DNA from: Schmidtea polychroa
Lineage: Eukaryota
DNA: 64,000 nucleotides
NCBI GenBank assembly: GCA_044892525.1
Contig: CM097885.1
Location: forward strand, 13,394,001-13,458,000
Direction: 5' to 3'
The position numbers and the translations under genes are program-made. This document shows positions 6,857-59,296 of the stretch, in pieces. Positions within the stretch are counted from its first letter, which is position 1, and each line of letters starts with the position of its first letter. The notes beneath the pieces were generated by a model. That model worked only from the letters and a program-made list of their open reading frames with translations. It ran no database searches and was not told the origin of the DNA.

Positions 6857-6913
<57 letters not shown>

Positions 6914-7427
6914 TGCAATTATTCATAAAACTTAATTTCTACATCACTTTCATGATTTTCAACATTTTCATCATTTGCATGAATATTTTAATATTTTTCA
7001 ATATTTTTCAATATTTCTTTATTATTATTAAATTATTATTTTTACAGTTATTTTGAAAGTTTTTCATCTTATTATTATTATTAATATTTTCAAAGTTATT
7101 TTCAAAGAATTATTATTATTATTTGCAAAGTTCTAATTATTATTTTTTTTTAGAAGTTTCATTATTATTATTTACTTACATATTCATAAAACTTAATTTC
7201 TACGTCAATTTCAGGATTTTCAACATTTTCATCATTTGCATTTTTTAATAATTATCAATTTTTTCATAATTTTCTACATTTTCAATATTTTCACGATTTT
7301 CAACATTTTCATGATTATTTCAGGAACTTTTTCATCAAATATTGTTCAAAGTATTATTTTCAAAGAATTATTTTCAAAGTTTTAATCAATATTATTATTA
7401 TTAATATTATTATTATGATTATTATTA

Positions 7428-7514
7428 TATATACTCCGAGTTTATCCGACAAGATATTCTGTCCCCCTATGGGTATTGCTCACAAGGGTACTACTCACAT
7501 TCAACATGTCGCAA
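7428..7514. repeat. 87-bp dispersed internal module, copy 1 (others 7871-7957, 9952-10038, inverted partial 11741-11839; all mirrored in the right arm)
   Basis: TATATACTCC(G/T)AGTTTATCCGACAA(G/A)ATATTCTGTCCCCCTATGGGTATTGCT...CAACATGTCGCAA. Confidence 0.9.
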
Positions 7515-7536
7515 ATTATTTTCAAATACAATTTCA

Positions 7537-7585
<49 letters not shown>

Positions 7586-8940: not shown

Positions 8941-9205
8941 TCCAGAACATAACTCCTTTAGTGTTTCACCATTTTATCTGGTTCATCTTCCTCATAATCA
9001 TATAATTCATGTTTTAATAAGAAATCTCTAAATCTAAAAACTATAACTCCTTTAGTGTTTCACCATTTTGTCTGGTTCATCTTCTTCATAATCATATAAT
9101 TCATGTTTTAATAAGAAATCTCTAAATCCAGAACATAAGTCTTTTAGTGTTTCACCATTTTGTCTGACTCATCTTCTTCATAATCATATAATTCATTTTC
9201 TTCAT
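8941..9205 (-). repeat. Three ~92-94-bp tandem units with acidic coding-like content (mirrored at about 15545-15810)
   Basis: Each unit reads ELYDYEEDE(P/S)DKM in one frame; the frame is not maintained between units. Confidence 0.8.
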
Positions 9206-12200
9206 TACTAAGTAAAATAATTAAAATATTGTAGTAAATTCTTTATTTACTTACTTTATGGATACTAAAACGAAAGAAATAAAGTTATATCATAATTATA
9301 TTTAATTAATTTAAATTTAAATAATTTAAATTTAGTATTTAAACATATTTAAACAATTTAGTTATTTAAGCATATTTAAACATTATTATATAGTATTTAT
9401 AAAATATTATAATATTATAATTTTATGTATTCTAAATTTATTAATAAATACAGTATAATTTTATATAATATTATAATATTATGTACACTTATATATCCTT
9501 CATTTAATTTTTTAAATTCAAAAATTTATAATGAAGATTTTTTGAATTAAAAAATATTCTGTTAGTATTTCCATGCAGAAAACAACGAATTCAATAATTA
9601 AAATCTTAATTTTCATGTTGTTAGGGTTGTGGCCAGAAGTTAATCGCCATCTAATCGTTTGTTCTCAATTTCGCTCATTTTTGTTCAAAACATTCAGGAG
9701 AGTTGTTATCTGGAAAGTTTCTTTTAGCTCAGCTTTCTTTAAACACTCACGGCATTCTTGAAAGATGTGACACTGGAAATAAATTAACAATGGGTGGTCT
9801 TGCATACATGTTGTTGGTTTGAACTGTTGATTTATTTTAGAAATATGTATATTAAAAACATTTAAGGTATCATTCAGTAAAATAATATAGTATTTTTGAG
9901 TATTTTTTAGTTGATTTATAAATAACAGTATTTTGATATATCAATAAAGACCATATACTCCTAGTTTATCCGACAAAATATTCTGTCCCCCTATGGGTAT
10001 TGCTAGCAAGGGTACTGGTCACATTCAACATGTCGCAAGGGTATATTAATCATTTAGAAATTCTTAGGTAATTTAGTGAGATGATCGTGAATATTTTAAA
10101 TGTAACTTTACACTTATGTCGAGCGACTAATTTATTGGTTAACTTTGTAGTCATTTAAAGCAAAAATTAATTTATTCATCTAATGTTCGTTACAATAGTT
10201 AATAATATGAGAAAACATGGTCATTATTCATTGATAATTTTAAATTCTTTATCATTTGGAGTAAATTTGTTTGAGGCAAAAATATTTAAAGGAGTCATAA
10301 TAGAAATATGGTTATCATTTATCCAATTAAGGGGCTTATTAGTTAAAAATATATATTCATATAGGGTTACAATTATTTTCTAATTTAATTATATGATCAT
10401 TGGGCGTAGTATATCTTTGCGAGAAATTTAAGATGTTTGAGTAACCAAAACATGGATATTTTGTACGATAAATTTATGAATATTGGTTAATTTAGTCATT
10501 TAAAATAATATTTAGCAAAGGTAATTTGGCAAAATATCATTTATCCATCCGATAACAATATTCCTTCAATAGATATTCAACCGATTTAATTTCTAATTAA
10601 AATCATAAAATTTCTTCAATAAAGATCAATTTTCTTTAGCTGTTGTCGATTTCCAACTTTTAAGTCAATATTTCTCAAGTTTTGTCACTGATGTCCCCAC
10701 AATGAATAAAATAACTTCTTAAGTAAAATAATTTAAAGCAATAACCTTTGATATCAATTAATTCTAAAGATTTCAAATATTTCATTGTGAAAACCAAGTA
10801 AATTGATCATTAACCCTAAACGACTTAATAAAACAGTGGATAATTAATAAAAAACTGGTTCTAAAACATAAATCTAAATTACTGTGCAATAACATTCATC
10901 ACAACCTAATAAACCTCTAAAACGATATAATTTCACAGGAACTATTATTAATTCATAGCTAAATACTGACTATTTCCCTTTAAAATTTACCAATAAGAAC
11001 ATTGTCGATTTAAATAGAGATTTCAAAAATTTCCACCTTAACCGATCCCTCACCAAATATTTCTATCATTTTAAACACCTTAAAAATCATCTATTACCAT
11101 CTTAACCAACCGACTTTAATATATCAGACCTTTAATATATCAATTCTCTTAAAATCCATAGAAAATTCTTCAAAATATGAATTTTATTTAATTGTTACAG
11201 ACATCCTTCCATTGAAATAATTTAGTATCTAAATTCATGTAGTAAGAGCCCATTAAAAAATCAAAATTTACTAAAATCAATATTTTCTACAAATATTTCA
11301 CCACATTTACCATCAAATACCTAACTAGAGATGAAATATATCGATTGATCATAATTCTTCATCGATTCAGCTAATTATATAGCAATTATAACGTGATATA
11401 TCTTTCAAAATCACAAATTTCAGTATATTTTACAATAATTTTTACAAAAATTAAATAATAATAACTTGATTATTGTAAAAACTCTAATTATTAACCTAAC
11501 TGTCATTAAAAATATTTTTATTTAAAAGTAAATTTAAAAACAAGTCAATAAAATATAGCAAATTATCAAGAAATTAATTAAATTTGTCTTAGAATTAACA
11601 CTAAAACGTTAAATTTCAAAATATTCTTTCAATTATTCACAAAAAGGTTAGTAATAATGTTAGTAAAATCCCGCTAACTCTAAAAATTACCAATGAATTT
11701 AATGCTAAATAATAACCAAAAATTTGCCTAAATAAAACACACCAGTACCTTTACGACCAGTACCCTTACGAGCAGTACCAATTGTGAACAGTACCCATAG
11801 AGGGAGAAAATATCTTGTCGGATAAACTCAGAGTATATATAATAAAACGAATTAACAATAACTCCATCAAATTAAATCAGTCAAATTAACACAAATTTTG
11901 ATAAAAAATCTTATTCTAAAATGGTAAGAAGCGTAAAGTCGAAAGATAATTTTAATAACACAGAGATAAATTAACAATATTATTCTCAGGTGGTAAGAAT
12001 CTTCATTAAAGTTAGGAAATTATAAGAACTACCAATTGCTATAAAATATTTAAACGAATTTAGTTTTATTGTTTTATAACTTTCGGTTATATTTGAGTGA
12101 GTTTTCGATTGTCCCTTTTAACTTTCAGTGCTCATTTTCATTAAAAAGAGTAATGTATCTTAAATTATCTTTTAGAATATTTGTTTTTGAAAATGAAATA

Positions 12201-15200
12201 TTTAGTTTAAAATAGTAAATTTAATAATAAATTGTTAATATTAAAGGACTTAAATAATAATTTAAAATATGAACTTATCATAATTACTCTGTCAAATACC
12301 CTTCACGGTTTCTTATGTAATAAAATATTCATTTGGGGATTAAATACTTTATTAAATAAAAGTTTATCACATTATTAAAATATTTTAATTCGTTAGTAGC
12401 TCATATAATAGAAATATTTTTATTTATATATCCTCATCACTTATAGCCGCCGACTCTCGATTTCCCACTAATTATTATCATTTATATTCTCCCGGCAAAT
12501 ATTTCTTTTAAAATTGTATTAAATATTTTTTATTAAAGTGAACGTTTTTTATGAATTTTTATGAAATTTATGAATTTTATGAAATAATTTTAAATAAATA
12601 CAATTAATATATATCCATGCCACTTCTCTGTATATTTTCATTGACCTTCCATAATCTAATAATGAATAATTCTAACACTTATTTTAACCCCTTTGAAGTT
12701 TATTATTAATTTATGACAGAATAATAAATAATTTCCTAACTTTAATGAAGATTCTTACCACCTGAGAATAATATTGTTAATTTATCTCTGTGTTATTAAA
12801 ATTATCTTTCGACTTTACGCTTCTTACCATTTTAGAATAAGATTTTTATCAAAATTTGTGTTAATTTGACTGATTTAATTTGATGGAGTTATTGTTAATT
12901 CGTTTTATTATATATACTCTGAGTTTATCCGACAAGATATTTTCTCCCTCTATGGGTACTGTTCACAATTGGTACTGCTCGTAAGGGTACTGGTCGTAAA
13001 GGTACTGGTGTGTTTTATTTAGGCAAATTTTTGGTTATTATTTAGCATTAAATTCATTGGTAATTTTTAGAGTTAGCGGGATTTTACTAACATTATTACT
13101 AACCTTTTTGTGAATAATTGAAAGAATATTTTGAAATTTAACGTTTTAGTGTTAATTCTAAGACAAATTTAATTAATTTCTTGATAATTTGCTATATTTT
13201 ATTGACTTGTTTTTAAATTTACTTTTAAATAAAAATATTTTTAATGACAGTTAGGTTAATAATTAGAGTTTTTACAATAATCAAGTTATTATTATTTAAT
13301 TTTTGTAAAAATTATTGTAAAATATACTGAAATTTGTGATTTTGAAAGATATATCACGTTATAATTGCTATATAATTAGCTGAATCGATGAAGAATTATG
13401 ATCAATCGATATATTTCATCTCTAGTTAGGTATTTGATGGTAAATGTGGTGAAATATTTGTAGAAAATATTGATTTTAGTAAATTTTGATTTTTTAATGG
13501 GCTCTTACTACATGAATTTAGATACTAAATTATTTCAATGGAAGGATGTCTGTAACAATTAAATAAAATTCATATTTTGAAGAATTTTCTATGGATTTTA
13601 AGAGAATTGATATATTAAAGGTCTGATATATTAAAGTCGGTTGGTTAAGATGGTAATAGATGATTTTTAAGGTGTTTAAAATGATAGAAATATTTGGTGA
13701 GGGATCGGTTAAGGTGGAAATTTTTGAAATCTCTATTTAAATCGACAATGTTCTTATTGGTAAATTTTAAAGGGAAATAGTCAGTATTTAGCTATGAATT
13801 AATAATAGTTCCTGTGAAATTATATCGTTTTAGAGGTTTATTAGGTTGTGATGAATGTTATTGCACAGTAATTTAGATTTATGTTTTAGAACCAGTTTTT
13901 TATTAATTATCCACTGTTTTATTAAGTCGTTTAGGGTTAATGATCAATTTACTTGGTTTTCACAATGAAATATTTGAAATCTTTAGAATTAATTGATATC
14001 AAAGGTTATTGCTTTAAATTATTTTACTTAAGAAGTTATTTTATTCATTGTGGGGACATCAGTGACAAAACTTGAGAAATATTGACTTAAAAGTTGGAAA
14101 TCGACAACAGCTAAAGAAAATTGATCTTTATTGAAGAAATTTTATGATTTTAATTAGAAATTAAATCGGTTGAATATCTATTGAAGGAATATTGTTATCG
14201 GATGGATAAATGATATTTTGCCAAATTACCTTTGCTAAATATTATTTTAAATGACTAAATTAACCAATATTCATAAATTTATCGTACAAAATATCCATGT
14301 TTTGGTTACTCAAACATCTTAAATTTCTCGCAAAGATATACTACGCCCAATGATCATATAATTAAATTAGAAAATAATTGTAACCCTATATGAATATATA
14401 TTTTTAACTAATAAGCCCCTTAATTGGATAAATGATAACCATATTTCTATTATGACTCCTTTAAATATTTTTGCCTCAAACAAATTTACTCCAAATGATA
14501 AAGAATTTAAAATTATCAATGAATAATGACCATGTTTTCTCATATTATTAACTATTGTAACGAACATTAGATGAATAAATTAATTTTTGCTTTAAATGAC
14601 TACAAAGTTAACCAATAAATTAGTCGCTCGACATAAGTGTAAAGTTACATTTAAAATATTCACGATCATCTCACTAAATTACCTAAGAATTTCTAAATGA
14701 TTAATATACCCTTGCGACATGTTGAATGTGACCAGTACCCTTGCTAGCAATACCCATAGGGGGACAGAATATTTTGTCGGATAAACTAGGAGTATATGGT
14801 CTTTATTGATATATCAAAATACTGTTATTTATAAATCAACTAAAAAATACTCAAAAATACTATATTATTTTACTGAATGATACCTTAAATGTTTTTAATA
14901 TACATATTTCTAAAATAAATCAACAGTTCAAACCAACAACATGTATGCAAGACCACCCATTGTTAATTTATTTCCAGTGTCACATCTTTCAAGAATGCCG
15001 TGAGTGTTTAAAGAAAGCTGAGCTAAAAGAAACTTTCCAGATAACAACTCTCCTGAATGTTTTGAACAAAAATGAGCGAAATTGAGAACAAACGATTAGA
15101 TGGCGATTAACTTCTGGCCACAACCCTAACAACATGAAAATTAAGATTTTAATTATTGAATTCGTTGTTTTCTGCATGGAAATACTAAGAGAATATTTTT

Positions 15201-17164
15201 TAATTCAAAAAATCTTCATTATAAATTTTTGAATTTAAAAAATTAAATGAAGGATATATAAGTGTACATAATATTATAATATTATATAAAATTATACTGT
15301 ATTTATTAATAAATTTAGAATACATAAAATTATAATATTATAATATTTTATAAATACTATATAATAATGTTTAAATATGCTTAAATAACTAAATTGTTTA
15401 AATATGTTTAAATACTAAATTTAAATTATTTAAATTTAAATTAATTAAATATAATTATGATATAACTTTATTTCTTTCGTTTTAGTATCCATAAAGTAAG
15501 TAAATAAAGAATTTACTACAATATTTTAATTATTTTACTTAGTAATGAAGAAATTGAATTATATGATTATGAAGAAGATGAGTCAGACAAAATGGTGAAA
15601 CACTAAAAGACTTATGTTCTGGATTTAGAGATTTCTTATTAAAACATGAATTATATGATTATGAAGAAGATGAACCAGACAAAATGGTGAAACACTAAAG
15701 GAGTTATAGTTTTTAGATTTAGAGATTTCTTATTAACACATGAATTATATGATTATGAGGAAGATGAACCAGATAAAATGGTGAAACACTAAAGGAGTTA
15801 TGTTCTGGATTTTTTAAATGAATTAGCTGATTGTAGGTGTCCTTCAACATGAATGTTTACTTATCAGACTTAAATTATGTAAACTTTCTTTCAACGAATG
15901 TCAAGAAAAATGGGAAAACCGATGTTTTAACAATTAGATATTGTAAAATATTCGTTACACCTGAAGAATATTATTAATAATGTAAGACATGAATTAATTC
16001 TTTAAAATAAATATATTATATTTAGGTATCTGTGTTTTATGTTGGGAAATGTCATTGAAAAAGTATACCACAAATAACAGTTGCCTAATAGTCAGGTAGA
16101 ATTTAATTTCTGACGATAAAATGATAAATAACATCTGTAAGTTAATTGCTTTTAAATTTTAGCAATGATAGTTGACACCGCATCAGAAACTAAGAAATAC
16201 GTCCAATTTGCAAGATGTATTCCAAATGGCCTGATGGAGATGATAATTTTGAGATAGATTACCAGCAGAAGAGCGAGAAAAATTTGTAAATTAAATATAA
16301 TAGGGTTGGGTGGGTCCTCTTTATCCCTTAATTAATATATATTTACAAGCTGATCGTCGTGGTGGGCGGTTGTAATCTAACTAGTGGGAGGCCTCTGTAA
16401 ATATATATTTGTGTTAGTGAAAACATTAATTAATTTGGTTATAGTGCCAATGACGCATGTATTTTGAAATTATACGTTTCGAATGTGCTGGTAGTTGACT
16501 ACCCATGCTAGGCGTAATGTTCCGTACGGAAAGCTATAATGCCCAGGTTCTTCTGACCCCACTTGGGGGAGGCACAGACGACCCTTGTGGACGCGAACAA
16601 ATATCCACCGTGTCTTTCAGGCACAGATATTTGGTCACTGCTCATTAGGCCTGGCAATACTAAATGCATAAACTTTGCCTTGTCCTCTCTTGTCTTGATT
16701 TTTATCGTTTAAATATTATTAAAAATAGTAGGTGTTATAAGTTTTATTTACTAACCTTAATAAACCATAATATGCTTTAAACTCGAAAACCCTTGCGACA
16801 TGTTGAGTGTGACTAGTACCCATATGAGCAATACCCATAGGGGGACAGAATATTTTGTCGGATAGACTAGGAGTATATACACCCATGTTAAACAAGGTAT
16901 GTGTATATAGAATGTGTGTGTGTAAAATTATTGTCAACTTCGTGTAAAGGCAAACACAGAATATTGCAAACATATAATAATTCTCTACCCCATAACTTAG
17001 GGTGTAAATAATATTTTATGTTTTTGACTAATTATAATAATAATAATAAAGTTTAATGGGTTGTATAAAAAATATTTAGGTTTTCACTAATATTGATAAT
17101 AATAATTGTTAATGGGTTGTGTGTGTATGTGTAAAAATATTTTATGTTTTTGACTAATATTTGC

Positions 17165-17213
<49 letters not shown>

Positions 17214-17836
17214 TGAAATTGTATTTGAAAATAATTTGCGACATGTTGAATGTGAGTAGTACCCTTGTGAGCAATACCCATAGGGGGACAGAATATCTTG
17301 TCGGATAAACTCGGAGTATATATAATAATAATCATAATAATAATATTAATAATAATAATATTGATTAAAACTTTGAAAATAATTCTTTGAAAATAATACT
17401 TTGAACAATATTTGATGAAAAAGTTCCTGAAATAATCATGAAAATGTTGAAAATCGTGAAAATATTGAAAATGTAGAAAATTATGAAAAAATTGATAATT
17501 ATTAAAAAATGCAAATGATGAAAATGTTGAAAATCCTGAAATTGACGTAGAAATTAAGTTTTATGAATATGTAAGTAAATAATAATAATGAAACTTCTAA
17601 AAAAAAATAATAATTAGAACTTTGCAAATAATAATAATAATTCTTTGAAAATAACTTTGAAAATATTAATAATAATAATAAGATGAAAAACTTTCAAAAT
17701 AACTGTAAAAATAATAATTTAATAATAATTAGGAAATATTGAAAAATATTGAAAAATATTAAAATATTCATGCAAGTGATGAAAATGTTGAAAATCATGA
17801 AAGTGATGTAGAAATTAAGTTTTATGAATAATTGCA

Positions 17837-17905
<69 letters not shown>

Positions 17906-19533
17906 TTTGAAAATAACATCTTCCACACGGGCGTTAATATTTTAAAAGAAAATATTGAAAATTAAAAAATAATAATATGTAATCAACGATTTAAACAAAT
18001 TATATTATTACGTATTCGATAATTAAAACAAAAAATTATATAATCAATGATTTAAACAAATTATATAATCAACGATTTAAACAAAATTAAATTATTATGT
18101 AATCGATAATTAAAACAAAATTATTAGTTCTAAAAATATTAGGCTTCGATTACGTAATAGTTCTAAAATATGTGGCATCGTTCTAAAAATATTAGTTCTA
18201 AAAATATGATGAGTCATCGTATGAGTCATCGTTCTAAAAATGTGATGAGTCATTGTATGAGTCATCGTTCTAAAAATATTAGGCATCGTTCTAAAAGTAA
18301 GACGTAATCATTCTAAAAATAAGAGGCATCGTTCTAAAAATATTAGGCATCGTTCTAAAAATATTTGGCATCGTTCTAAAATTATGACGTAATCATTCTA
18401 AAAATATTAGGCATCATTCTAAAAATAATAGGCATCGTTCTAAAAATATTAGGCATCGTTCTAAAAATATTAGGCATCATTCTAAAATTATGACGTAATC
18501 ATTCTAAAAATATTAGGCATCATTCTAAAAATAATAGGCATCGTTCTAAAAATATTAGGCATCGTTCTAAAAATATTAGGCATCGTTCTAAAAATATTAG
18601 GCATCGTTCTAAAAATATTAGGCATCATTCTAAAATTATGACGTAATCATTCTAAAAATATTAGGCATCATTCTAAAAATATTAGGCATCGTTCTAAAAA
18701 TATTAGGCATCGTTCTAAAATTATGACGTAATCATTCTAAAAATATTATGCATCGTTCTAAAATTATGACGTAATCATTCTAAAAATATTAGGCATCGTT
18801 CTAAAAATAATAGGTACCATTCTAAAAATAATAGGCATCGTTGAGTGAGTCATTCTCTTTGTTAATATTAATGATGATGATACCTTCAATAGCTCATTTG
18901 AAAGGTCTTGGACTATGCTTTAAGATGAGGTATCGTCCAATAAAATCTGTTGGTGGGAACATTAATTTTTGGGATGAAAAAAAGTAGGTCACCGCTGGGC
19001 CAATTAATAATATTTTGAATAATAATAATAATTTAACGTTGAAAAGATGATGGTCATCAATTGTTAATAACATTAAAACTATTAAAGATATATAAAATAC
19101 CTATAGCTCATTCGAAAGGTCTTGGACTGAGGTTTAAGATGAGGTATCGTTCAATAAAATCTGTTGGTGGGAACATTAATTTTTGGGAAGAAAAAAAGTA
19201 GGTCACCGCCCGGCCAATTAATTTAAAAAAATTACGTAATAGTTCTAAAAATATTAGGCATCGTTCTAAAAATATTAGGCATTGATTACGTAATAGTTCT
19301 AAAAATATGTGGCATCGTTCTAAAAATTTTTTTTCCCGGGGGGGGGGGGGGGGGGAGGGGGTATATGTGTCGCGGGAGCTCATGTTCTGGGGAGCTCACA
19401 TCATACTACTAACATAGTCGAAATTTTAAGATCGAATTTTTTGTAAAAGCATAATATGCTTCTCTAATTTCGGGGTCCTAAAAATTGGGGACCCCGGCTT
19501 TAGCCCGATCAGCCCCCCCTTAATCCGCTACAG

Positions 19534-25680: not shown

Positions 25681-25962
25681 ATTATTATTATGAAAATAAA
25701 GAATCAATATAAGCTTTTTTTGTGATACCTATTGTAGGTTCCAATAACAGGTTGAACTTTTGGCTCTCTTCAGTGTTTATAATTTTGAAAAGAAAACTCT
25801 AAAAGTAATCGGATGCACTTGTAAACAGTTTCTGTGTATCGACTAATGTTTTAGTCCGCAGAGGTGATTATAATTTTTCATAAGCCATGTTTACAAGTTT
25901 ACAAATTTTTCTGTGACCAAGTTAATTTGCAAGTGATGTGATTTCTAGTGTACCAGGAAAAG

Positions 25963-26103
25963 TATGCAATAGAGTTGAATAAGCAATATTGTATACTTAC
26001 CTGGCGCGAAGAGAAATTTCTGCGTCTCCTACATAGTACTAATGAGAGCCAAAAACTCGAAACTAGTCTACTATTGGGATTTGCACTGGGCATCACAAAG
26101 CTT
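25963..26103 (+). repeat. U1-5'-motif / hairpin / hammerhead repeat, copy A (core mutated)
   Basis: ATACTTACCTGGC at 25993; ATAGTA-CTAATGA-GAGCCAAAAACTC-GAAA-CTAG-TC-TACTAT at 26033-26074; homologous to 48970-49110. Confidence 0.85.
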
Positions 26104-26162
26104 ATACTGTTTATTTTATTCAAGTGAGACATCCGACAAAAAAATGTTACACCATTACTTTA

Positions 26163-27835: not shown

Positions 27836-29190
27836 CAGGGGTATTAAACTCAAACTGGCCTGCAAGCCGCATTAGACTAGTATTATAAGCCGGCGGGCCG
27901 CAACATAACTTTTTTTGAAAACAAATACTCGAGAATGTATCATAATTGCAATTTATTAGAAATAGGAAAAAAAACATTATTATGAACATAAAAATGTAAC
28001 ACAAAATTATTTAAATAAAGACAAACAAAGCGCGTAATATATTATTTTTATTTCTGGATACTTAGTTGGCAGCGTTTAGCCACCACAACAACATCAATAT
28101 TAGGAACAATCTTTTGAGATGTAGTCAGTCTTAGTGTTGCTTGTAAATGTTCGCCACTTAACTTTGTTCGTGTTGAAGATTTGTTGAATTTCATCAATGA
28201 AAAAAATTGTTCACAAAGATAAGTGCTTCCAAACATTGCAATAATCTTTACTGCTTGAGAATGCAACCTTGGAAATCTTTCTTGTTAGAGATATGAAAAA
28301 AACTCAAGAATTCCAACATCAGAGTACTTTTGTTTTAAAATAGAATCACACTGAAGCTCCACTAATTCCATCTGAATCTCCTCTGTCACGGATTCAACAT
28401 CAACAGCAAATGGTGTTGAAAAAAGTTGGAACTGTGGTTCAAGCATTTTAAAATATTTAAATCGTGTCTCAAACTGTTGAAGGAGTTCTTTGAGAATACC
28501 TGAATAGAATACCAAGCAATTGGGTTCAATCTTTTTCAGTGACTTGATAGTTTGAAAATGAATGTAGTTACCATTGGAAATTTGTTTGTTCCAGAAGTTC
28601 AGCTTGATTTTGAATGATTTGATGTGATCATACATTTGAGTTATGATCAAATCTTTTCTTTGCAGTTTTGTATTCAGATCATTCAAGTGATCTGTAATAT
28701 CAGTTAGAAAAGCAAGATTGCTGATGAAATTTGAGTCTGTGAGTTCTGGTACTTTTTTGTATTTTATTTTCATGAATGAGTCGATCTCATCCAAAAGATC
28801 AAAAAAATCTTTTAAAAACCTTTCCACGACTGAGCCACCTTACCTCAGTGTGAAATAAAAGTTCACCATGTTGGCTTTCATTGGTAAGAAGGAAAGAAGA
28901 AAATTGCCGGTGGTTTAGACCTCTTGATCTAATAAAATCAACTGTTTTTACAACAATTTTCATTACTTCCTTCATTTTAATATTTTTTCCACACAGAGCT
29001 TCTTGATGCAAAAAGCAATGAATGCTGGTAAAGTTGTTTCCGTGAGGACTGAGGATTTGAAGTTTGTTTTTAATTAGACCAGCAACTCCCACTTTTTTTC
29101 AAAGCATTGCTGGAGCACTATCTGCTTCGAGATTAACTAATTTTGACCAAGGTAGCTCAGTTTTAGCTATACACTCTTCAAGCATTTGAA
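27836..29190 (-). mobile_element. hAT (Charlie/Buster/SPIN, GTF2IRD2-like) transposon 3' half with frameshifted transposase 28048-29190
   Basis: HCFLHQEALC, TEVRWLSRG, LAFLTDITDHLNDLN, FGSTYLCEQFFS motifs; CAGGGGT terminus at 27836. Confidence 0.9.
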
Positions 29191-37502: not shown

Positions 37503-38468
37503 TAACTGCGAAATATAACATTATCTATAATCTAAAAAAATCAATAAATATATATTATAGGAACACACAAACTTACCTGTGTGTAAAAGTTTAATGCTGC
37601 GAAAGTTAACATATTTATTATAGGAATCTAAAAAGTGAGAGAAAATAATTAAGCATACAAACACAGCACACATAATGAAAAATATATACAAAATTAAGTA
37701 AAGTGTTTTTTATGCGAAATTAACATTGATTAACATATACCTAAGTAATTAACATATCAATATTTTTAAATTATTTAAAAAGTTATGTACAAAAAAACTT
37801 TTGAATCAGATTCTGACTGCTCTACTTTGAGATTTAGGGAAAAAGAAGAAATTAAATCGTAAGATTTAATTATAAAATAATTTAGAATATAAAATTTCTT
37901 TAGATTTGCAGATATTGAAGAAGGTCCTTCGAAATCTTTGAATTTGCAGGAAAAAATCGCAAATCGTAAATTTTAATAAATTATTTTAACAAATTAATAT
38001 TTTCATAGAATTACAGAAATAGACAAAATTCGAAAGAAGATTACAAAAACTTAAAAAATATTTTATCCATTCTTTACTAAATGTCTTAAAAAAATAAATG
38101 TTTAGTGAATACTTTATTTATTTATAATTATAAAAATATCTAACTTACATTTTTAAGAAATAAATCCAAATAAATCCAAATAAAATACCATAAAATTCCT
38201 AAAAAACACCTGAAATTTAATTATCAATGTTATATTATAAATGCTGACTAACAGTAATATTTAAGAACTTGAATAATGATCTCATAATTATATAAAATCA
38301 AAATTCAAGTCCTAAAAATTACTTAAATTCAAAAACTTACCTTAAAACGATTTTTGAAAAATTGAAAAAATGAAATTAAGTTAACATTGTCATATAATTG
38401 GTGACTCACCTCAGGTGGTGTGCACACCAACGTATATTATAGACAATGTTAACTTTCGCAGTTAGGTG
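37503..38468. mobile_element. Tc1/mariner-type non-autonomous element (~950 bp), copy 1
   Basis: TIR ...TAGACAATGTTAACTTTCGCAGTTAGGTG followed by TA; left terminus damaged; inverted homolog of 55292-56233. Confidence 0.85.
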
Positions 38469-39324
38469 TAAGCTAAATGATATATGAGCAACAGTATTGT
38501 GAATATTTGTTTGAGTTTCATTGGTTGCATGTTTAAGTATTTTGCACTTGATACAATATCACCAATTGATTTCCTTAAATTGGTCTTCGTATAGAAAAAA
38601 TTATATCATAAAATAGATTTTGTTATTGATATTTAATAATTAACTTATCACCACAAATCACTTACAATAATTATTAAATAATCTGATTATTAATTAAAGA
38701 ATTTTTTTTATATTTATTATGTAGTAATTTCTTTATTTTTCAATTAATTAACATTAATGATATTATTGCATAAAATAATCTAGAAATATGATTTTTTTAG
38801 CTGAAGTTTTTTTATCTACAACAAACTAATAAAATGAATTTATTGATAACCAGAGAAATGAAATTTATTTTTATTATTATTATTTTTTATATATAATAAA
38901 TATTCAATATATAAACAACAATATTTTATGATTGGTCTAATAATCATTTTACGACAGAATTTATTCCAAGATCTGAATAAATAAATAATTTGCATTAGTT
39001 CCAAATTTAATTATTTCCAATTATTAATTATTATTATAAAATAATTTTTAATTTGAATATTTTTTAAAGCGAAAATTAATTTATAATTTTTATTTTCATT
39101 TCATTCATTTTTCGATATAAATCATTATTTTTTTCTGTTGTACACATACTCATCACGATAACTTATTTTCAAGTCAAATTTTTTAAATTTATTTAAACTT
39201 CTTAAAATTTAAACAAACATCGCTTTTTGAATCAAATATAAAATAGTGACATGTCACAAGAGCCTTCATGTATATCAAGAAAATGTCAAGAGATGCCATT
39301 CGTGTTCATAACATTAACGGAACC

Positions 39325-40221
39325 TAGTGCATGGCCCCCACATCCTAGATTGGACCCCAATGCCAGGATTTTCGGCGGGCCCCCAAACTATATACCGCTT
39401 GATGCTCTACAGGAATTAGGATAAAATAGGGCGGATTAAATGATGGCAAGAAAGTAACATTAAAAATTTATTAAAAATAAACTACAGTTTTTAGCTTTAC
39501 ATTTTAAAAAAACATAGACTATGGTAGAATCTTACAATAATATCAAAAATTATCTCAAAGTAGACAGTATTTTCTAGCTTTTGTCAATGCAAATTTTTCA
39601 CTGACATCATTAAAATCAACTTTCTTTGCTAAATCATTTTCGATACTTAAAATTGCTAGATGATTGAGTCGATCTTGACTAATTGTGCTTCTTTGCCATG
39701 TTTTTAATGAATTTTCCAGCCTGCTGAATGATCTTTCAGCTGAAGAAATCGTAACTGGTACGGTACAAAACAGTTTAATGGCGAGGCAGATATTAGCAAA
39801 TATACCTTGCAGTTTTTTGTCATAAATTGCATTCAGAAGTTTTGTTGGACTTCTTTCAGTTCCAAAAACTGTTTTGTGGATATTTTTAAAATGAAGGATT
39901 TCGTGCGATTGAATTTTTTTTTTAATGTATCAATACAGACAAGTGTTTTCCATCGGCAATACGGCATATATTAATGTCCGAATGGAGATAAATCACCAAC
40001 ACGATGATGAAAGGATTAGCGGAATAATATAATGTGCCTATAGCAAAATGCAGTAATTAATTTTGGTTGATATGTACAAAACAAAAGTCAATATTTAACA
40101 AGTTCCTTTCTGTCTTATGTTCATCTCATTTAGCTAACCGACTTGCTACGGCGGGCCCCATTAATCCCGGGCCCTAGGGCTAGAGCCTTGTCAGCGTCTC
40201 CCATGTGGGGGCCATGACCTA
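39325..40221 (-). mobile_element. Deleted hAT element retaining the dimerisation domain
   Basis: TIRs TAGTGCATGGCCCCCAC / GTGGGGGCCATGACCTA; minus strand LFCTVPVTISSAERSFSRL...RSTISQDRLNHLAILSIE at about 39600-39800. Confidence 0.82.
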
Positions 40222-48760: not shown

Positions 48761-48914
<154 letters not shown>

Positions 48915-48969
48915 TTGTTGTAAATTTTTTTTATGCGGATGTCTAACATTTGAATAATATAAACATTAC

Positions 48970-49110
48970 AAGCTTTGTGATGCCCAGTGCTAATCCCAAT
49001 AGTAGACTAGTTTCAAGCTTTTGGCTCTCATCAGTACTATGCAGGAGACGCGAAGATTTCTCTTCGCGCCAGGTAAGTATACAATATTGCTGATTCAACT
49101 CTATTGCATA
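48970..49110 (-). ncRNA. U1-5'-motif / GAAA hairpin / type I hammerhead repeat, copy B (intact core)
   Basis: Minus strand: ATACTTACCT-GGCGCGAAGA GAAA TCTTCGCGTC-...ATAGTA CTGATGA GAGC CAAAA GCTT GAAA CTAG TC TACTAT. Confidence 0.85.
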
Positions 49111-49159
49111 GTAATATTGATAATAATAATGATAATAAATATAATAATAATAATAATAC

Positions 49160-50230
49160 TAATTTTCCAATTTCACCACTGATTAATTTTTCCATTGAAT
49201 TTATTAAAAAGAGAGCTTGAAGACTATAAATCAGTAACATATCGATGTTTTTTGATACTCACAAATTTTCGGCACTGCCTTTTTCAAGTGAATTTACATC
49301 ACAAAAATCTGTGCTTGTTGATATAAATCAATTCCGTTAGTCGACAGTTATCCAGAACTTGAGAACGGAGTTTTTTTTGTTTAGGTTTACATTTCAATGT
49401 TGGAAGGTGGTATCTAATTCCTGTTTTATAACTTCGTGTTTATTAGTGGATTTCAATTCTTACTTAGATGGTGTTCGGATCTTGGTTATGAATATTTATG
49501 TCATGGGTGCAATGCCACATATATTGTAATGACTGTCCGTCATCTCTGTTTTCAAGTTCCTGATCACTATAGACTGAAGGAATTGATTAATATTAGTAAA
49601 CACAATTTTGTGAAAAATTTATTAAAATGTTGTTTGATTTCAACTTTTGTGAGTTTTAAAATTTTTAAAATTTTAAAACTTTTATAATTTTTAAAGTTTG
49701 AATTGAAAAACAGAATTTTGTGAATTTTTAGCGAAATTAATTTTAAAATTATTAATGAATTAGTTAAATAGTTTGTTTAAAAACAGCAATTTATATTGAT
49801 TTAGTTTGATTTTCAATTCTACCTGAAGATGACAGTGATTCTGTCGAAATATATTGTAGTAAAATATATATATATATTGGATTTGGTGTTTTTTGTTATA
49901 TTTAAGTCAGTGCGATTGTTTGGTGATTGTTATAATAAATTTAAACAATAAGTGAAAATATTATAAAAAGCATTTTTAAAAGAATTTTGAAACAATAACT
50001 ATTCAATGTCAGAATTTAAAAATTCCAAGTAAGATGTCCAATAAGTACTTAGACTCGACAGTAAATAATTATTTATAAAATAGATATTGTAGATTTTTAT
50101 ACTTACTAAAGGCAGTGCCGAAAATTCATGAATATCAAAAAACATCGATATATTTACTGATTCATAGTCAAGCTTTTTAATAAATACAATGTCAATTGAA
50201 AAGAAATCAGTGGTGAAAATTGAAAAAAGT
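49160..50230. mobile_element. Penelope-like remnants: ~130-bp inverted repeats around a GIY-YIG fragment
   Basis: 49160-49283 is an inverted homolog of 50108-50230; YEYLCHGCNATYI...TVRHL at about 49490-49570. Confidence 0.6.
49819..49859 (+). ncRNA. Minimal type I hammerhead ribozyme (Penelope-associated)
   Basis: CTAC-CTGAAGAT-GACAG TGATT CTGTC-GAAA-TATA-TT-GTAG: stems I and II pair, palindromic stem III. Confidence 0.75.
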
Positions 50231-51282
50231 TCTTATAATATTTTACTTACATAAATATAGATAATGAAAAGTGTTTTGTCTTTCTGAAATACTAATCACA
50301 TCTAATACATCTTTGAGCTTATAAATGATTGTCTTGGGGCAGTATGGTATTTTCCTTTATAATTAAAGAATTATCCGGTTCTCAAGGCATTTATAAAATT
50401 TTAATATTTTATTGCATTTAAATTTAAGATTTTATATTTGTAAAAAAATTCTTTATAAATAATACATATATAAACAGAGTAGAACGAAGAGATATAATAA
50501 AAACAAATACAATTTTATTAAATTTTGACATAAATATTATCTATAAAATTTGCGATGGAATTCCGTGCAATTCCGAAACAAACCAGTTTTATTGAGGGAA
50601 ATTCATTTAGTTGATGGAAATTTCGCCCAGGAATTCGCTCGTAATTCAATTAAAATCCGGTGAGTATGATTTAGATTAACCAGCAATTTAAACAAAACAA
50701 GTTACTGTTTAATATAATATTAAGTAAAGTAAATTATTCGACTAAATTCCTGTAAATTTCAGACGGCTTCCAGTTGACGCCCAGAATATAATAAGACAAG
50801 ACATTTATAAAAATATTACTATATATTTCCACATCACAGGAAAATTTAAGGGGGAACTGAATAACTCTTTTTTTCTTTTATTTCAAAATAATTAGTATTA
50901 AATATTATTATATTAATTTCAACTAATCATGTTGTAATTATTCAAATATTAACGGGAAATATTATTGGTGTTGTCGGATTATTTAGATTAATTATTCGTC
51001 AGTATTACAACTTTGTTATAACTGATTGTTTATGTTTATGACATAAATTGTAATTAAATAAATAATGATTATGCAATTCGATTGTATTTTACAATTAGTA
51101 AAACTATTTTTCTGTGTTGGAGTCAATAAAAAATTCTTTAATAATTAAAATCGAATAAAATGAGAAATTGAAGAAAAAAGAACTGGAAAATTAGTCAAAA
51201 ATAAAATTTACAAGACTAAGCTATTCAGTTTCAAATTTTTTCACCTTGAGGCTTTCTTGGATGCTTCCTTGGGGCTTTAGGA

Positions 51283-51493
51283 CAGTGATGCGCAGTTTTT
51301 TACGTATTGCGACCCTCTTTTTTAAATAAAAAATTTATTCGACCCCATCTAGCAAAATTTATTGAAAAATTCATAAAAATTGAATGTTTAATTTATAAAT
51401 GCCTCTACAATTTAGCAGGCTTCATACTTTTGGTAGCTAGTTTTTCCAAACATATAACGCATAATAGACCCCTCTTGACTTTACGCATTACTG
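51283..51493. mobile_element. hAT-type MITE
   Basis: CAGTGATGCG / CGCATTACTG ends; flanks CTTTAGGA and GTGTAGGA (6/8 match). Confidence 0.5.
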
Positions 51494-53671
51494 GTGTAGG
51501 AGGATTAGCCAGTAGTTAAAAATTAAATGTTATTGAAAAGATATATTTCACATTATATATGTAGAGCAATGGTGCTCAGGCTTTTTTAACTGTGGCCTAT
51601 TTTTAAATTACGAAAAATTATTTAAATTGTATAATGGATCTTATCGTCTTGATACTTAAATAAAAAAAACAATAAACAAGTGAATAATTAACAAAAATTA
51701 TTTTATCCAAAGTTGAAATTAATAATTAATCCAATTTGTAATTGAAATAAAATTAATTAGGATTTTTGAAAAATTAAAATTATGAAGTTGCCTAATTTTT
51801 CCAAATTATGATGAAATAATTCAATAATAACACAAACACTTGATAAATTTGATAAACAGCTGACAATTAACCCGATTAATATGGCAATATAAAATCAATA
51901 CTAACAATATTTATTTCATAACATTTAACACTAAAATGAATTTATTTAATTTTACATCTTTTTTTATGAATTCATACGAGGAAAAATCATATTCTTTTTA
52001 ATTAAATATTCAAACAAAGAAATAATTTAGAATCATTTTTCATTTATGAAGATTTTCAATTTTCTGATGAATTTTGTGTTATTTGTAAAATAAATCATTC
52101 GTTTATTCTATTATTTTGAATAATTAAATCTAAATTAAAAATTAAAAATTACGAAATATTGTGTATATTTTGGGACCGCTCTGAAAGACGTGGAGGGTCA
52201 CATGCGGCCCACGGCCAGTAGGTTGGTCTATTGTAAATGTTGTGTTCGGACCTCAAATATATTTTGTCATTCATATATTTAAATTAATAAGATCTTATAA
52301 AGATTCTTAATCCGAAAATGTCGGTGATATGTATCTATTTATTTTGACAGGTATTATATGAGTGTACCCATTGATGGTATGTTTGTTCGATTTAAGGTGC
52401 TGATATTGCCTCTGAGATGGTAAAAGCTGAGCTCTAATACATCTTCGCAAAATTCGACTAAAAAGTTCTTTCTTGTATATTTTGGCACCCAATATGAAAC
52501 CTTCAATAATTAATTAATTAATTTTATGACAGTTAGATATCTTGTTGTTTAAATAATTTGGAATTGGCGGATTTTGTGAATTAATTAAAACTTGTTATTT
52601 ATAAATTCATTGAATAAATATATATTGTTAGTTTCAAGATTTTTCTGCGAGATTTAAAGATGGATCTAAAGATGGATTTAACTATGACATTTGACAGTTT
52701 AATATTTGAAAATTAAACACTGAAAATCAGTATTTACAAAACAACAAAAGCCTGTCTAGCAAATTATTTATTTACAAAATCCGTTAGAAAAATGTTTTTA
52801 TAAACTTTATTTAGGAAGATAACTAAATTATTCACGAATTAATAAATTGTTGAACTTGGGTCGAGAATGTACAAAGATTGAGGATGAGAACGATGTTATT
52901 GACGAAGGTGCTTCCAACATAAACCAAACCCGATACTTGCGGTTTTCTCGTCGTTAAAGTATCCCTTTAACCATTTTAACTTCATTAATAATTTCTTTGC
53001 CATTTTTTTATTTTTTATATTGCCATATTTTATACACGCAAAGAGTTCAATTCAGTATTTTAAAATATATCAGTAAATTTCTTTATCTTTTTGTTCACAT
53101 TTTATCTGTTTTTATTTTATTCTAACATTTCATTAATTTCCATTACAACTATGGATCAAAAAATCATTTTCCTATGTGATATAGAGAAATAAAGTTTTGA
53201 CTTGCAGTTACAATGGCTAACTATTACAGCTAACTATAAAAATAGTTTAATAAAATTTTATTTTGATTTAAAAAATTGATAATGATAAAAAAAGTTAGAA
53301 GCCACTGCTATGCAATAATATGGTGAGATTCTTTTAATGATGTTGGTTACTTAGGGGTGTGTCATTTTAAATTTTTAAATGCATTAGGGGTAATCATATA
53401 TATTCACTCGACTCTTTCCTAAGCACCTCCATGACTATTGCAATTTAACCATTTGTGTACCGATGGCGACGACCATGTTGGTATTGTACACAAAGGCGAA
53501 AAAACAATGAGCAGGTGAGCTCTATTGCTAAAACTACTCCCCATTGTATTTTCTCTTCGGGTTCTAGACGGCCGATAGAAGGTCTTACGTCATTGATCAT
53601 TTTCTATTTTTACTTTTCTATCTCATTCGGTTATGGTCTTCATTTCTAGTTGTTTTTTATTCTTTCCTTTC

Positions 53672-53955
53672 AAAATTTTGTGCAGGGATGCGCCCTTATT
53701 TTTCTATTACTAAAGGTTGCTAGGTATTTCTTTTGATATTTATGAATATTTAAACTATCTCGCAAAAAAATTTGAGCAGGGATCGGCCCTTATTTTCCAG
53801 CTAATAATTATTGTTCCACACTTCCTACAATATCTAAATTATCCTTTGAAAAATTTGAGCAGGGATTGGCCCTTATTTTCAAGTTAATCCACGCTTCCCA
53901 TAATATTTAAGTTATACTTCAAAAAATTTGAGCAGGGATCTGCCTGTATTCTCAG
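53672..53955. repeat. Degenerate tandem repeat, four units with core AAAATTTGAGCAGGGATNNGCCCTTATTTT
   Basis: Cores at about 53672, 53766, 53849, 53922; the intervening sequences resemble one another. Confidence 0.8.
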
Positions 53956-55291
53956 TCCTAACCTACATTTGACCACGGTACTTCCAGCGATAGGACCCGT
54001 GAGGAAGCCCCCACATTCCGGCCCAATCCAGCTGCGCGATTGAAAAACCAGCATACCCACCAGTCTGAGCATCCCGAAGGTACCTCAAACCATGATATGC
54101 TGAATCTCAATTCAGCGGTACTAACGTTCGTAATCAGTTAGTATAAAAATTGAACACAATAAAATTATTATTTAATATCTGCAACTAAATGAAATTTAAC
54201 AATTAAAAGAAAATAACAAAAGAAAATTTAACTAAAAATTTTATTGCATATTAAATTTAATCATCTCGTAAAATTACTACAACAATAAAAAAATAAATTA
54301 CCAAATCCACGTTGGCATAAAATCGAAAACTGAGAGCTTCACTGTCTACAACTAAATTTTGATGTTAGAGAAAAAGTAGTAGTTTTAAATGAATTTGTGA
54401 TCAGTATTTATACTGATTTTTCATGCATTTGCTGCCACTCTATCCAATCAGAGTGCGAGAAATTCTGAATTAGTCTTGCATACATGCATGAGTGTGTGCA
54501 ATTGTTTATTTGTTTTAATTCACTAAATTTAATTAATTTCTTATTTAATTTTTATTAATTTTAATTTTATAAATTTTATAATTTAAATAATTTGAGTTAT
54601 ATTAATTTTTATTAATTTAAACATTTTTATTCTTTAAATTTAATAAGTTAAATAACCATTTAATTCTATAAACTTTACAATTTATATAATGCTAACTAAT
54701 TTTATTATTTTTGACGATTTTATTTTTATATTGTTTAAATAATTTTCAACTAATTCTATTTTATATTTTATTATTTTTCTATTTAAATTTTTAAGTGTTG
54801 AATTTTTTGTTAAATTTATTTATCTCTTATTCTATTATACAGGGTTTATTGGTTCTTAATGTGTGATGTAATTTATTTCATTTATTTTAAATTAGATCTT
54901 GATCATAGATTATTTTCAAATTTGTGGTTTTTGTGTTAGGTATTTTCGATCGATTAAAACAAACTCTCAGTTCTCGTTTTCAGCCCAACAATGAGAAAAA
55001 TGTATCTCAATCAAGGACATTGTCGATTTCAAAAGTCCGTATCTCAATTTTTAGCGGATAATTGCTTAATAAAGAGAAACTGGCGTGTAAATTGATCAGT
55101 GAAATGTGTTTATGTGCAGAATAAATTTTATTCAATATACGCTAGGTGAATTTTTGAGTTGTTATTTTGTTACAAATGGGGCCTGAATTTAAATTGTATT
55201 ACAGTCCGCGGATAAATAGGTAATCACGAAACATGTACAGAAATATTGTAAATATGAAGTAGTAACAACAAACAAGTATATACATATAATA

Positions 55292-56233
55292 CACCTAACT
55301 GCGGAAGTTAACATTGTCTATAATATACGTTGATGTGCACACCAGTCGAGGTGAGTCACCATATATATGACAATGTTAACTTAATTTCATTTTTTCAATT
55401 TTTCAAAATTCGTTTTAAGGTAAGTTTTCGAATTTAAGTAATTTTTAGGACTTGAATTTTGATTTTATATAATTATGAGATCATTATTCAAGTTCTTAAA
55501 TATTACTGTTAGTCAGCATTTATAATATAACATTGATAATTAAATTTCAGGTGTTTTTTTAGGAATTTTATGATATTTTATTTGGATTTATTTCGTAAAA
55601 ATGTAAGTCAGATATTTTTATAATTATAAATAAATAAAGTAATCACCAAACATTTATTTTTTTAAGAGATTTAGGAAAGAATGGATAAAATAGTTTTTTA
55701 AGATTTTGTAATCTTCTTTCGAATTTTGTCTATTTCTGTAATTCTATGAAAATATTAATTTATTAAAATTTACGATTTGCGATTTTTTTCCTGCAAATTC
55801 AAAGATGTCGAAGGACCTTCTTCAATACCTGTAAATCTAAAGAAATTTTATATTCTAAATTATTTTATAATTAAATCTTACGATGTATTTTCTTCTTTTT
55901 CTCTGAAGCTCAAGGTAGAGCAGTCGGAATCTGATTCTAAAGGTTTTTTGTGCATAACTTTTTAAATAATTTGAAAATATTAATATGTTAATTATATTTT
56001 AATCAATGTTAATTTCGCAAAAAAACACTTTACTTAATTTTGTATATATTTTTCATTATGTGTGCTGTGTTTGTATGCTTAATTATTTTCTCTCACTTTT
56101 TAGATTCCTATAATAAATATGTTAACTTTCGCAGCATTAACTTTTTACACACAGGTAAGTTTGTGTGTTCCTATAATATATATTTATTGATTTTTTTTAG
56201 ATTATAGACAATGCTAACTTTCGCAGTTAGGTG
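55292..56233. mobile_element. Tc1/mariner-type non-autonomous element, copy 2 (complete)
   Basis: TA|CACCTAACTGCGGAAGTTAACATTGTCTA ... TAGACAATGCTAACTTTCGCAGTTAGGTG|TA. Confidence 0.9.
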
Positions 56234-56420
56234 TATATATTATTTCTAAAATTAATTGTAAAGCACAAACATGTGCAGACGGACTTTACTTTCAGTTTTA
56301 TGAAATGCACAAATATGTGCACACAGATTGTAATGTGTTAATTACATTTGTACAAATTATTAGAATTTTAAAATGTTCTATAACAAAAAGGGTAAACTTT
56401 TCATAGTTTTATTTTTCTAG

Positions 56421-57462: not shown

Positions 57463-58777
57463 TGGTTACGAAGCCACTTTTAATTGTTTATAAATTCAAT
57501 TCATTCGATTTACTATGTTTGATTAAACAAGTTTTATAAAACAAATCATAAATAATTTTTTTTAAGTATCTAATAAGCCAGTTGGGTCTGTGAAATGTTT
57601 AGCTGTTCATGAAGTTTTTTGTTTAGAAAATATTATTTTTTAATTTAATATTTCCACCATATGTATGTTTCAGAAAATGGGAGAACTAGGAACTGCAGCA
57701 GTGCTTACTAATGTAATAATAATAAATAAAATTCGTTCGAATTTAGATGCTCAACTTCCACATTCATATGGGGCAGCCCTGGGTCCATGATAGTCCTGAA
57801 ATTTTCAGTAACTTTTGGACATTTTCATGAAGGCATATTCAGTAATCACAATGTTTTTTCTTAATATAATATTAACTCCTTTTCATATTGTAAAGCAGTT
57901 GAAAGACCAAAAATAGTACTTTAATTTTTCGTAAGGAAACCAAAAAATTATGTTGGCCAACTAATGTTTTTAACATTAAATGTAACCAACAACCAGACGT
58001 AAGTAACATACCTTATTTAGCAGCAGGGATCTATTGAAGAGCACGTCATGCATTCCGTATATCTACAAAAGGCAAAAATTACACAGTTCCTGAAAAACAA
58101 GGACCATAACAGTCCGTAAAATTTACTCTGCCTAATTTTGAAATAATTTTAAAAAATTTTCTTTTTGGGAGAGTACAAATTACTATACTAACCATCCCCG
58201 GCGCAATAGTGCATCCGTCTGAGACTAACTTCATCAACAATTTATCCTCTAAATATATTTGAGAAGTTTCAACTGATTCAATGATATTTAGCGTAGCTAT
58301 TTTATGAAATAAAACTTTAAAATGTTTTCATTATTTTTAAATACATATTGAGGTTCTAGTTGATTAAAACTAAATTTATCGTACTAGTCATAATGACTGG
58401 TTATAACTTTTATGGTAAAAATCCTCTGTTAAAAATGGGTAAATCAAAAAAAATAATGTCATGACTTTTATAGATATATGTAAGTAATTAATATCATGAA
58501 TAATTTTATTTTTCAATTTTAATACTAAGAAAAATAAATCTGTGTTATACCTATTTATACCGACACCAGTCATTTTGATTGGTGCCATTATCAAAGCGGC
58601 CGACGACAATAAAAGCGTAGCCGGCTACAATAAACATAAACAACTTTGATATTGATATCATATATTGATATATTTGAGGTAACAGAAATAAAAATTACCT
58701 TTTTATGAATTATTAGCTGTTTAGCGAGACTTTATTATTTGTACAATGGAATCTATTTTTAGCATCGATTCCACAAA

Positions 58778-59296
58778 ATGGATAAACTGAGGAAAAGTGC
58801 AACATTTTTGGGAAAAATAAATGACATTCCTATGGAATATTCTGAGATTGAAGACAATGACCTGTATGATAGTGAAGGTAAACTACTGAATGGTCGAAGT
58901 GGACCATATGGTAAATATAATATACCTTTTGAGACCATAAATAGTAGTAGTTTTATCGATGAAGAGGTTACTGGCGAGTCTACTGATACAGAAAATAATA
59001 GTAATTATGAAAATATTTTGAATATTCATAAAAGAAATATACAACTCTCAAGCTCTGAGGACGAAAATGATGAAGATAAACAAGAGGATCATAAGGAAAT
59101 TGCAACAGATGGTACAATTTGTGAAAAATTACAAGCTGGTTCTAGTATTAGAAGAAAACCAATTCAATCTATTTTCAAAGATGTATCCAATCCTACAGAA
59201 AATGCAAAAAGAAATATTATGAAAGGTGTAGTTAGCACCGCATTTTCACTGATAATAAAGAACTCAATTATAGAATATATAAGTACTTGTACATAA
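58778..59296 (+). pseudogene. piggyBac-like transposase N-terminal remnant
   Basis: Acidic N-terminus then STAFSLII...IIEYISTCT, resembling the start of the PGBD core; truncated. Confidence 0.55.

Follow-up and report, generated by a model that had tools for sequence, protein, structure and literature searches.

Hammerhead repeats of the kind described below are known in many animals, and the new part is a U1 5' end inside the repeat. Metazoan non-LTR retrozymes are presented, in the accessible text of PMC7229834 and bioRxiv 10.64898/2026.07.22.740005, as non-coding units of 150-450 bp that occur as tandem and solo copies and carry a canonical type I hammerhead with a palindromic helix III, a GC content under 50% and a self-paired circle. 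Penelope-type mobilisation of these units has been proposed (Cervera and de la Pena 2020; Li, Clavereau and Pollet). The repeat analyzed here is alike in all of these respects and differs by its internal U1 5' tip. The term snRNA appears once in the accessible part of PMC7229834, in the reference list, and is absent from that of the bioRxiv paper.

The pLTRs of endonuclease-positive Penelope-like elements (PLEs), as far as the available portions of PMC4209133, PMC8557442 and PMC11167929 describe them, share with the repeat 5' truncation, an inverted 5' copy, an optional tail of 30-40 bp, AT-rich or microsatellite targets and a sense hammerhead near the 3' end. The repeat differs from them in having no ORF. 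Newt satellite 2 likewise consists of tandemly repeated hammerhead units, and an snRNA-type polymerase II promoter is said to drive it (Coats, Zhang and Epstein 1994, cited in PMC2220036), whereas the promoter of the present repeat is only predicted; in the accessible text of PMC2220036 no statement was found on U1 coding sequence in satellite 2. An snRNA-type promoter has been reported for the newt repeat only, and the present unit bears on how animal retrozymes are transcribed so strongly. The SINEU elements of crocodilians (Kojima 2015, PMC4494074) are mobile elements with U1-derived sequence. In the available text they have U1 and U2 pieces as 5' heads, polyA tails and no hammerhead (0 occurrences of the word), whereas the present unit is tandem and holds 16-19 nt of U1 at an internal position.

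No paper on a U1-containing hammerhead repeat was found in searches of an open-access library, and supplementary lists of retrozyme sequences might include this family. A pattern combining the U1 tip with the hammerhead core gave 24 viral and 15 metagenome matches in collections that hold little animal DNA, none of them with hammerhead stems or an extended U1 match when inspected by eye.

Copies of the repeat in the window

The window, which is the whole 64-kb stretch of DNA that was analyzed, is AT-rich and intergenic-looking. All of the motifs named in an earlier note on this DNA were found on the minus strand where that note had placed them. The features are as follows.

48913..49110, minus strand: 5'-truncated retrozyme copy, unit positions 183-377, 91% identical to the L054 tandem unit over 198 bp
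49099..49110, minus strand: site in the unit that best matches the upstream motif of host snRNA genes, 69 bp ahead of hammerhead stem I; candidate promoter site
49062..49080, minus strand: U1 5' tip; nt 1-16 equal host U1 type A, and 18/19 equal the main tandem-array U1 type
49080-49065, minus strand: sequence of the U1-like 16-mer
49070..49080, plus strand: perfect 5' splice-donor sequence, junction 49072/49073, complement of U1 nt 1-11
49047..49070, minus strand: 10-bp hairpin with a GAAA loop, the 5' arm being U1 nt 11-19 plus one base
48994..49046, minus strand: canonical type I hammerhead, in which helix I is extended, the core is intact, helix II has 4 bp and helix III a self-complementary 6-mer
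49040-49035 / 49004-48999 (stem I) and 49034-49028 (core), minus strand: hammerhead parts, with a 4-bp stem II, GAAA, a palindromic stem III and GUC
49005/49004, minus strand: predicted hammerhead cut, after GUC
25793..26161, plus strand: second copy, with the U1 16-mer at 25993-26008 and core G5 changed to A at 26041
25698..25774, minus strand: decayed inverted fragment, unit positions 258-336, 71% identity, E 1e-4 within the window

The hammerhead had been assigned to type I and compared with the minimal form found in PLEs. The type I assignment holds and the minimal form does not, since the architecture is that of the canonical metazoan type I (helix I of 6 bp plus an extension, helix II of 4 bp). 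This architecture is described in the accessible part of PMC4209133 and is typical of retrozymes according to that of PMC7229834. The fold of the hairpin and the hammerhead is reproduced by RNAfold (z -3.76; 0/200 shuffles as good). In an Rfam scan of the window the only hammerhead match was HH9, which is sub-threshold (20.8 bits, E 1.6), and no U1 match was obtained. The GAAA hairpin and the U1-like 16-mer overlap by 6 nt, and pairing in this hairpin is retained as G-U by the subfamily variants C240T and C242T. The segment 49099..49110 (-) also forms part of the 5' arm of the hairpin by which the U1 tip is masked, and the window copy starts there. The copy at 48913..49110 (-) is followed by a long (ATT)n tract.

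A second copy, previously delimited as 25963-26103, is present and nearly full length (25793-26161). Its core substitution, G5 to A at 26041, predicts an inactive ribozyme. The third, degenerate piece also exists, with an extent of 25774-25698; it is inverted, lies immediately 5' of the second copy, and contains neither the GAAA nor the U1 part.

The repeat unit and its insertion marks

The 140 bp originally taken as the element correspond to the 3' half of a 372-383-bp repeat. A perfect trimer (L054, at G000:C1:7.855 Mb) has a period of 383 bp, and the majority sequences of the three distinguishable subfamilies are 372-378 bp long. The unit has a GC content of 37% and is non-coding, with no ORF. 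As a circle, the 383-bp unit is predicted to fold with -128.7 kcal/mol (z -9.9; 0/60 shuffles as good). Predicted pairs are kept at 12/15 of the subfamily-defining changes vs 121/394 of the other changes (p 1.7e-4). This agrees with a circular fold under selection, but the comparison is biased upward, since the subfamily majorities also supplied the structure. The 12/15 count leaves out five sites (20-22, 122, 123) where the apparent variation falls at indels or homopolymers. The subfamily-defining sites fall in unpaired positions in 17/32 cases.

Genome-wide counts were taken over the 781-Mb assembly with four large contigs. The exact U1-like 16-mer occurs 1,081 times (reverse control, 0) and the exact hammerhead 30-mer 960 times. 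The 16-mer loci that were sampled all proved to be the element (30/30), and the hammerhead core is kept in 17/30 of these copies, which had been picked by the U1 motif. Six tandem arrays (13 matches), including five head-to-tail dimers of 371-378 bp, were observed among the first 100 of the 960 hammerhead 30-mer matches listed. The search for copy number and tandem arrays that had been proposed thus returned an abundant repeat with arrays. The number of tip-carrying copies is estimated at ~1,900 (1,081 divided by 43/77). With the exception of one duplicated pair, no flank common beyond the unit was found in 30 element loci, and neither an ORF nor an LTR was seen linked to it.

The ends of the copies were mapped in 165 rows from 168 matches, with a few arrays counted twice and a few rows clipped at locus ends. 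Most copies are truncated monomers, and the 5' ends are scattered across the whole unit. Rows longer than one unit, running through the cut site, number 31/165, and an adjacent inverted copy is present in 42/165. The 3' ends fall at unit 330-349 in 96 of the 165 rows and at unit 360-384 in 48, two end points that lie about 50 and 90 nt past the cut at unit 288. The flanks are in many cases microsatellites of the (ATT)n, (AAT)n or (TA)n type. Such insertion marks are described for Penelope elements in the available portions of PMC8557442 and PMC11167929, the latter of which also describes a two-site tail.

The genome contains at least 150 GIY-YIG matches, and 34 GIY-YIG loci were examined. The unit was found as the pLTR of an RT plus GIY-YIG ORF at none of these 34 loci. 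Pieces of the unit at L108 and L128 are separate neighbors of Penelope elements with other pLTRs, and L126 has a 30-bp chance match to the unit. The earlier note had proposed a search for links to Penelope ORFs; no such link was present at the 34 GIY-YIG loci or the 30 element loci, and none of the Penelope elements examined has this repeat as its pLTR. The Penelope families examined in the genome are different, having mostly U3-A8 minimal hammerheads and no U1 tip. The absence of the unit as a pLTR at the 34 GIY-YIG loci, together with the lack of a common flank at the 30 element loci, indicate that the U1-tip repeat is a non-autonomous retrozyme.

An intact Penelope-like ORF of 856 aa, with RT plus a GIY-YIG at the C terminus, is present at L124:3216-5783 (+) (G000:C2, about 183.47 Mb), and a U3-A8 hammerhead closely precedes its start codon. 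This family is young, with several near-identical copies. Its pLTR copies end +53-66 (32/62) and +94-98 (23/62) after their own hammerhead cut, which is the same two-3'-end geometry as that of the U1-tip unit. Copying by Penelope-type enzymes is likely, and we infer a partner enzyme. The tandem unit, the circular fold, the canonical type I hammerhead, the Penelope-type insertion marks and the absence of an ORF bear out the earlier reading of the repeat as a retrozyme, and we are highly confident that it is a non-LTR retrozyme.

Fragments of another abundant minimal-hammerhead family, with a U3-A8 core, are found in the window at 49163-49295 (-) and 50108-50226 (+). In L105-L121 this family serves as the 3' pLTR for GIY-YIG elements of the Penelope-like kind.

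The element-bearing sequencing runs X1 and X5 behave as genomic DNA. Runs X7, X8 and X13 track the depth profile of DNA across every repeat in window positions 48925-56300 and therefore look like low-coverage DNA. Run X19, which is RNA, and run X24, which may be RNA, yielded 0 contigs. In X7 the depth changes stepwise where the hammerhead begins; this was considered as a start site and set aside because the run is DNA-like. In X8 and X13 a contig of 409 nt, equal to one unit of 378 nt plus overlap, was likewise set aside as a circle, the runs being DNA-like.

Identity, position and folding of the U1 tip

The host genome has several types of U1 genes, for which 42 Rfam matches were scored. The tip is identical to nt 1-16 of host U1 type A (16/16), after which the match ends. 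It also agrees with 18/19 of the first nt of the main tandem-array U1 type, which makes up most of 264 pattern matches, and this match then ends as well. The resemblance to U1, first noticed as a 13-mer, is therefore confirmed, but it runs beyond 13 nt. The chance of the 16-mer by composition is about 6e-8 per unit, and that of the 5 nt beyond the donor complement is 2e-4. The match extends 5-8 nt beyond what a splice donor needs, and this excess over the donor length supports a real U1 origin of the motif. The internal tip is very probably derived from U1. The body of U1 (loops I and II, Sm site, 3' stem-loop) was sought in the unit by alignment to four U1 types, which showed no similarity (p 0.19-0.71). 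A U-rich stretch at unit 55-66 was tried as an Sm site and rejected, as it forms a hairpin and is replaced in another subfamily.

The tip is located at unit 212-227, which is 307-322 nt into the cut-to-cut monomer. Only 2/165 mapped rows start in the 10-nt bin that contains U1 +1, and most run well upstream. The tip is therefore not a head, and the suggestion of a SINE-like RNA headed by U1 does not agree with this internal position.

Conservation was evaluated in 77 hammerhead-selected copies covering the tip. The tip is exact in 43 of these, within two mismatches in 73, and deleted or rearranged in 4; the motif is thus kept among copies, contrary to one of the outcomes that the earlier note had considered. 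Its identity of 0.937 ranks 84 of 140 windows. Subfamily variants occur at 0/16 tip positions vs 37/344 overall, a non-significant difference (p 0.16). A tip-less subfamily was looked for starting from the deletion copy at L128, but nothing beyond its duplicate and single deletions turned up (30 loci examined of 44 matches).

In the circle, the tip is predicted to be paired in all three subfamilies (P 0.84 or more at 15-16 of 16 nt), its predicted partners being an upstream antisense arm and the GAAA hairpin. An RNA extending from U1 +1 to the cut would be 76 nt long, with nt 1-10 predicted free and a helix from nt 11 (nt 11-20). These ten nucleotides are predicted free only if the RNA starts at U1 +1, and in the uncut RNA of two subfamilies nt 6-10 of the tip are predicted to pair again. 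The tests that were run give no support to the anti-splice-site guide that had been suggested, the tip being predicted to pair in the circle and having no extra conservation, and a guide function at splice sites appears unsupported.

U1 in the host genome falls into at least five divergent types, of which some have an altered 5' tip (e.g. starting AAACUUACUUGG or AAACUAACCUGG). The U1 loci are located at G000:C4 74.0-74.2 Mb and 78.9-79.1 Mb and at C1 78.84 and 80.76 Mb, and the tandem U1 units hold two different U1 types, some with U4. A lone U1 tip lies between two U1 genes at L034:1295-1313 (-) (G000:C1, about 80,769,161-80,769,179) and matches the element at 18/19 nt. The last dozen bases upstream of it resemble the neighboring U1 gene (local promoter similarity p 0.04, one of five comparisons). 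Its body does not resemble U1 (p 0.18-0.49) and shows weak colinearity with the element (p 0.006-0.22, four copies). This lone tip could be a decayed U1 paralog, an old element copy or a relic of a founding fusion.

Candidate promoter sites and the origin of the tip

The motif ATGCAA is present at -67 to -70 in 6/13 distinct host snRNA promoters (U1, U2, U4, U6). Two U5 promoters have a variant motif, and 5/13 promoters have no clear site. Schistosome snRNA promoters are described as highly derived in the accessible text of PMC2770079. A PWM was built from eight snRNA promoter sites, and 372-378 plus-strand unit positions were scored per subfamily. The site 69 bp before hammerhead stem I is rank 1 in all three subfamilies, with a score of 7.2 and 1.9% of 7-nt unit windows as good. 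The site 66 bp before the U1 tip is rank 2 or 3, with scores of 6.0, 6.0 and 3.0 and 3.7-5.6% of windows as good. Real snRNA sites score 5.2-11.9 when left out one at a time. The -66 site is 1-3 bp short of the polymerase II snRNA spacing and is weakest in the least diverged subfamily. An unconstrained motif search gave a score of 114 vs 97-112 for six shuffles, and the 100 bp before the tip showed no similarity to U1 promoters (best p 0.08 of 21 comparisons). The two candidate sites weakly suggest that the unit may carry an snRNA-type promoter. A general promoter motif 69 bp before Penelope hammerheads was also considered and is absent, with scores of 2.4 or less in 32 rows.

The explanation that we favor, to which we give about an even chance, is that the tip is a captured remnant of a U1 gene start in a retrozyme with an snRNA-type promoter, likely copied by Penelope-type enzymes, and that the tip is folded away in the circle and is not a guide. 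In this model, transcription of tandem copies would probably be driven by a polymerase II promoter of the snRNA type within the unit, as reported for newt satellite 2. Pairing of two hammerheads via the palindromic helix III would let them excise monomers, and these would become circles. AT-rich microsatellite DNA would be nicked by a Penelope RT/GIY-YIG protein, whose RT would prime at either of two sites, about 50 or 90 nt beyond the cut, and copy around the circle over a variable distance. The first bases of U1 and two sharply placed candidate starts (unit 212 and 251-252) make the idea of a borrowed promoter testable in a tractable animal. If the tip is inert, the repeat is an ordinary retrozyme with a curious captured fragment.

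A possible but clearly less probable origin, for the same retrozyme, is an RNA-level template jump during reverse transcription that was unrelated to a promoter, the tip persisting only in the arms of two hairpins. In favor of such a jump, the match begins near U1 +1 without upstream likeness to U1 promoters, the tip is not extra conserved, and the tip-deleted copies (L128, L140, L149) are single events. Switching onto U1 and U2 has moreover been proposed for SINEU in the available text of PMC4494074. Against a jump, the site 66 bp ahead of the tip is the second or third best of the snRNA-promoter-like sites, and dispersed U1 5' retro-fragments look rare: the 7 matches listed before the C4 array, with 100 of 264 listed, are 4 U1 genes and 3 element copies.

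It is improbable that the tip acts as a decoy, in which case transcription would start at U1 +1 and self-cleavage would free a 76-nt capped fragment (or the circle would open its hairpin) that binds 5' splice sites or splicing factors. The fold from U1 +1 to the cut, with nt 1-10 predicted free and a helix at nt 11-20, the arrangement of U1 itself, agrees with this proposal, as do the absence of subfamily variants at the 16 tip positions across three subfamilies and the estimated number of about 1,900 copies. That absence is within chance, however (p 0.16, identity rank 84 of 140 windows). There is no similarity to U1 loop I or the U1 body and no conserved Sm-like site, the candidate stretch being a hairpin that varies between subfamilies, and the genomic copies do not begin at +1. 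An addition to this proposal, in which the upstream antisense arm would be an off switch in the circle, is equally doubtful. We hold a similarly low expectation for the capture of a U1 gene start, together with its promoter, by a selfish ribozyme RNA that would make a mini-U1, 76 nt long and capped, with a free tip and no Sm site, the circle hiding the tip behind the antisense arm; the lone tip at L034, with its non-U1 body in a host snRNA gene cluster, could be a relic of that founding fusion. If the tip is exposed in the cleavage product, it would be a natural splice-site decoy, and if the decoy proposal is true, a ribozyme-switched 5' splice-site decoy would arise from over a thousand loci.

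Still less probable is that the motif is a strong splice donor on the other strand, or a fold-back copy of the intron donor of a Penelope pLTR, with the extra U1 match arising by chance. Penelope pLTR introns can have a 3' end that overlaps the hammerhead, according to the accessible part of PMC4209133, and in one subfamily the upstream arm is donor-like on the strand of the hammerhead (T177 in 20/65 copies). This sense donor is nevertheless missing from most copies, and a donor accounts for only 11 nt of a match of 16-19 nt. No ORF is linked to the unit, and no GT-AG joint was found among the 15 joints listed of 77 in DNA-like contigs, which are uninformative for RNA. Pure coincidence in a GC-rich hairpin is very improbable at about 6e-8 per unit for a match that begins at U1 nt 1, even with many repeat families scanned and GC-rich arms needed by both neighboring hairpins.

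Other features were observed in the window. Short ORF remnants are located at 2604-3035, 4050-4927, 28285-28839, 39555-39929 and 58763-59296, which, judged by eye, resemble a gypsy-type RT and hAT-type and piggyBac-type transposases. An inverted duplication of 6.7 kb occupies 5385-12023 and 12728-19410, with 99.1% identity and a 0.7-kb spacer. Two inverted copies of a high-copy repeat of ~950 bp are found at 37503-38470 and 55290-56229, each with an Rfam mir-753 hairpin (61.8 bits). The mir-753 miRNA family, presumably a planarian family, may be repeat-derived.
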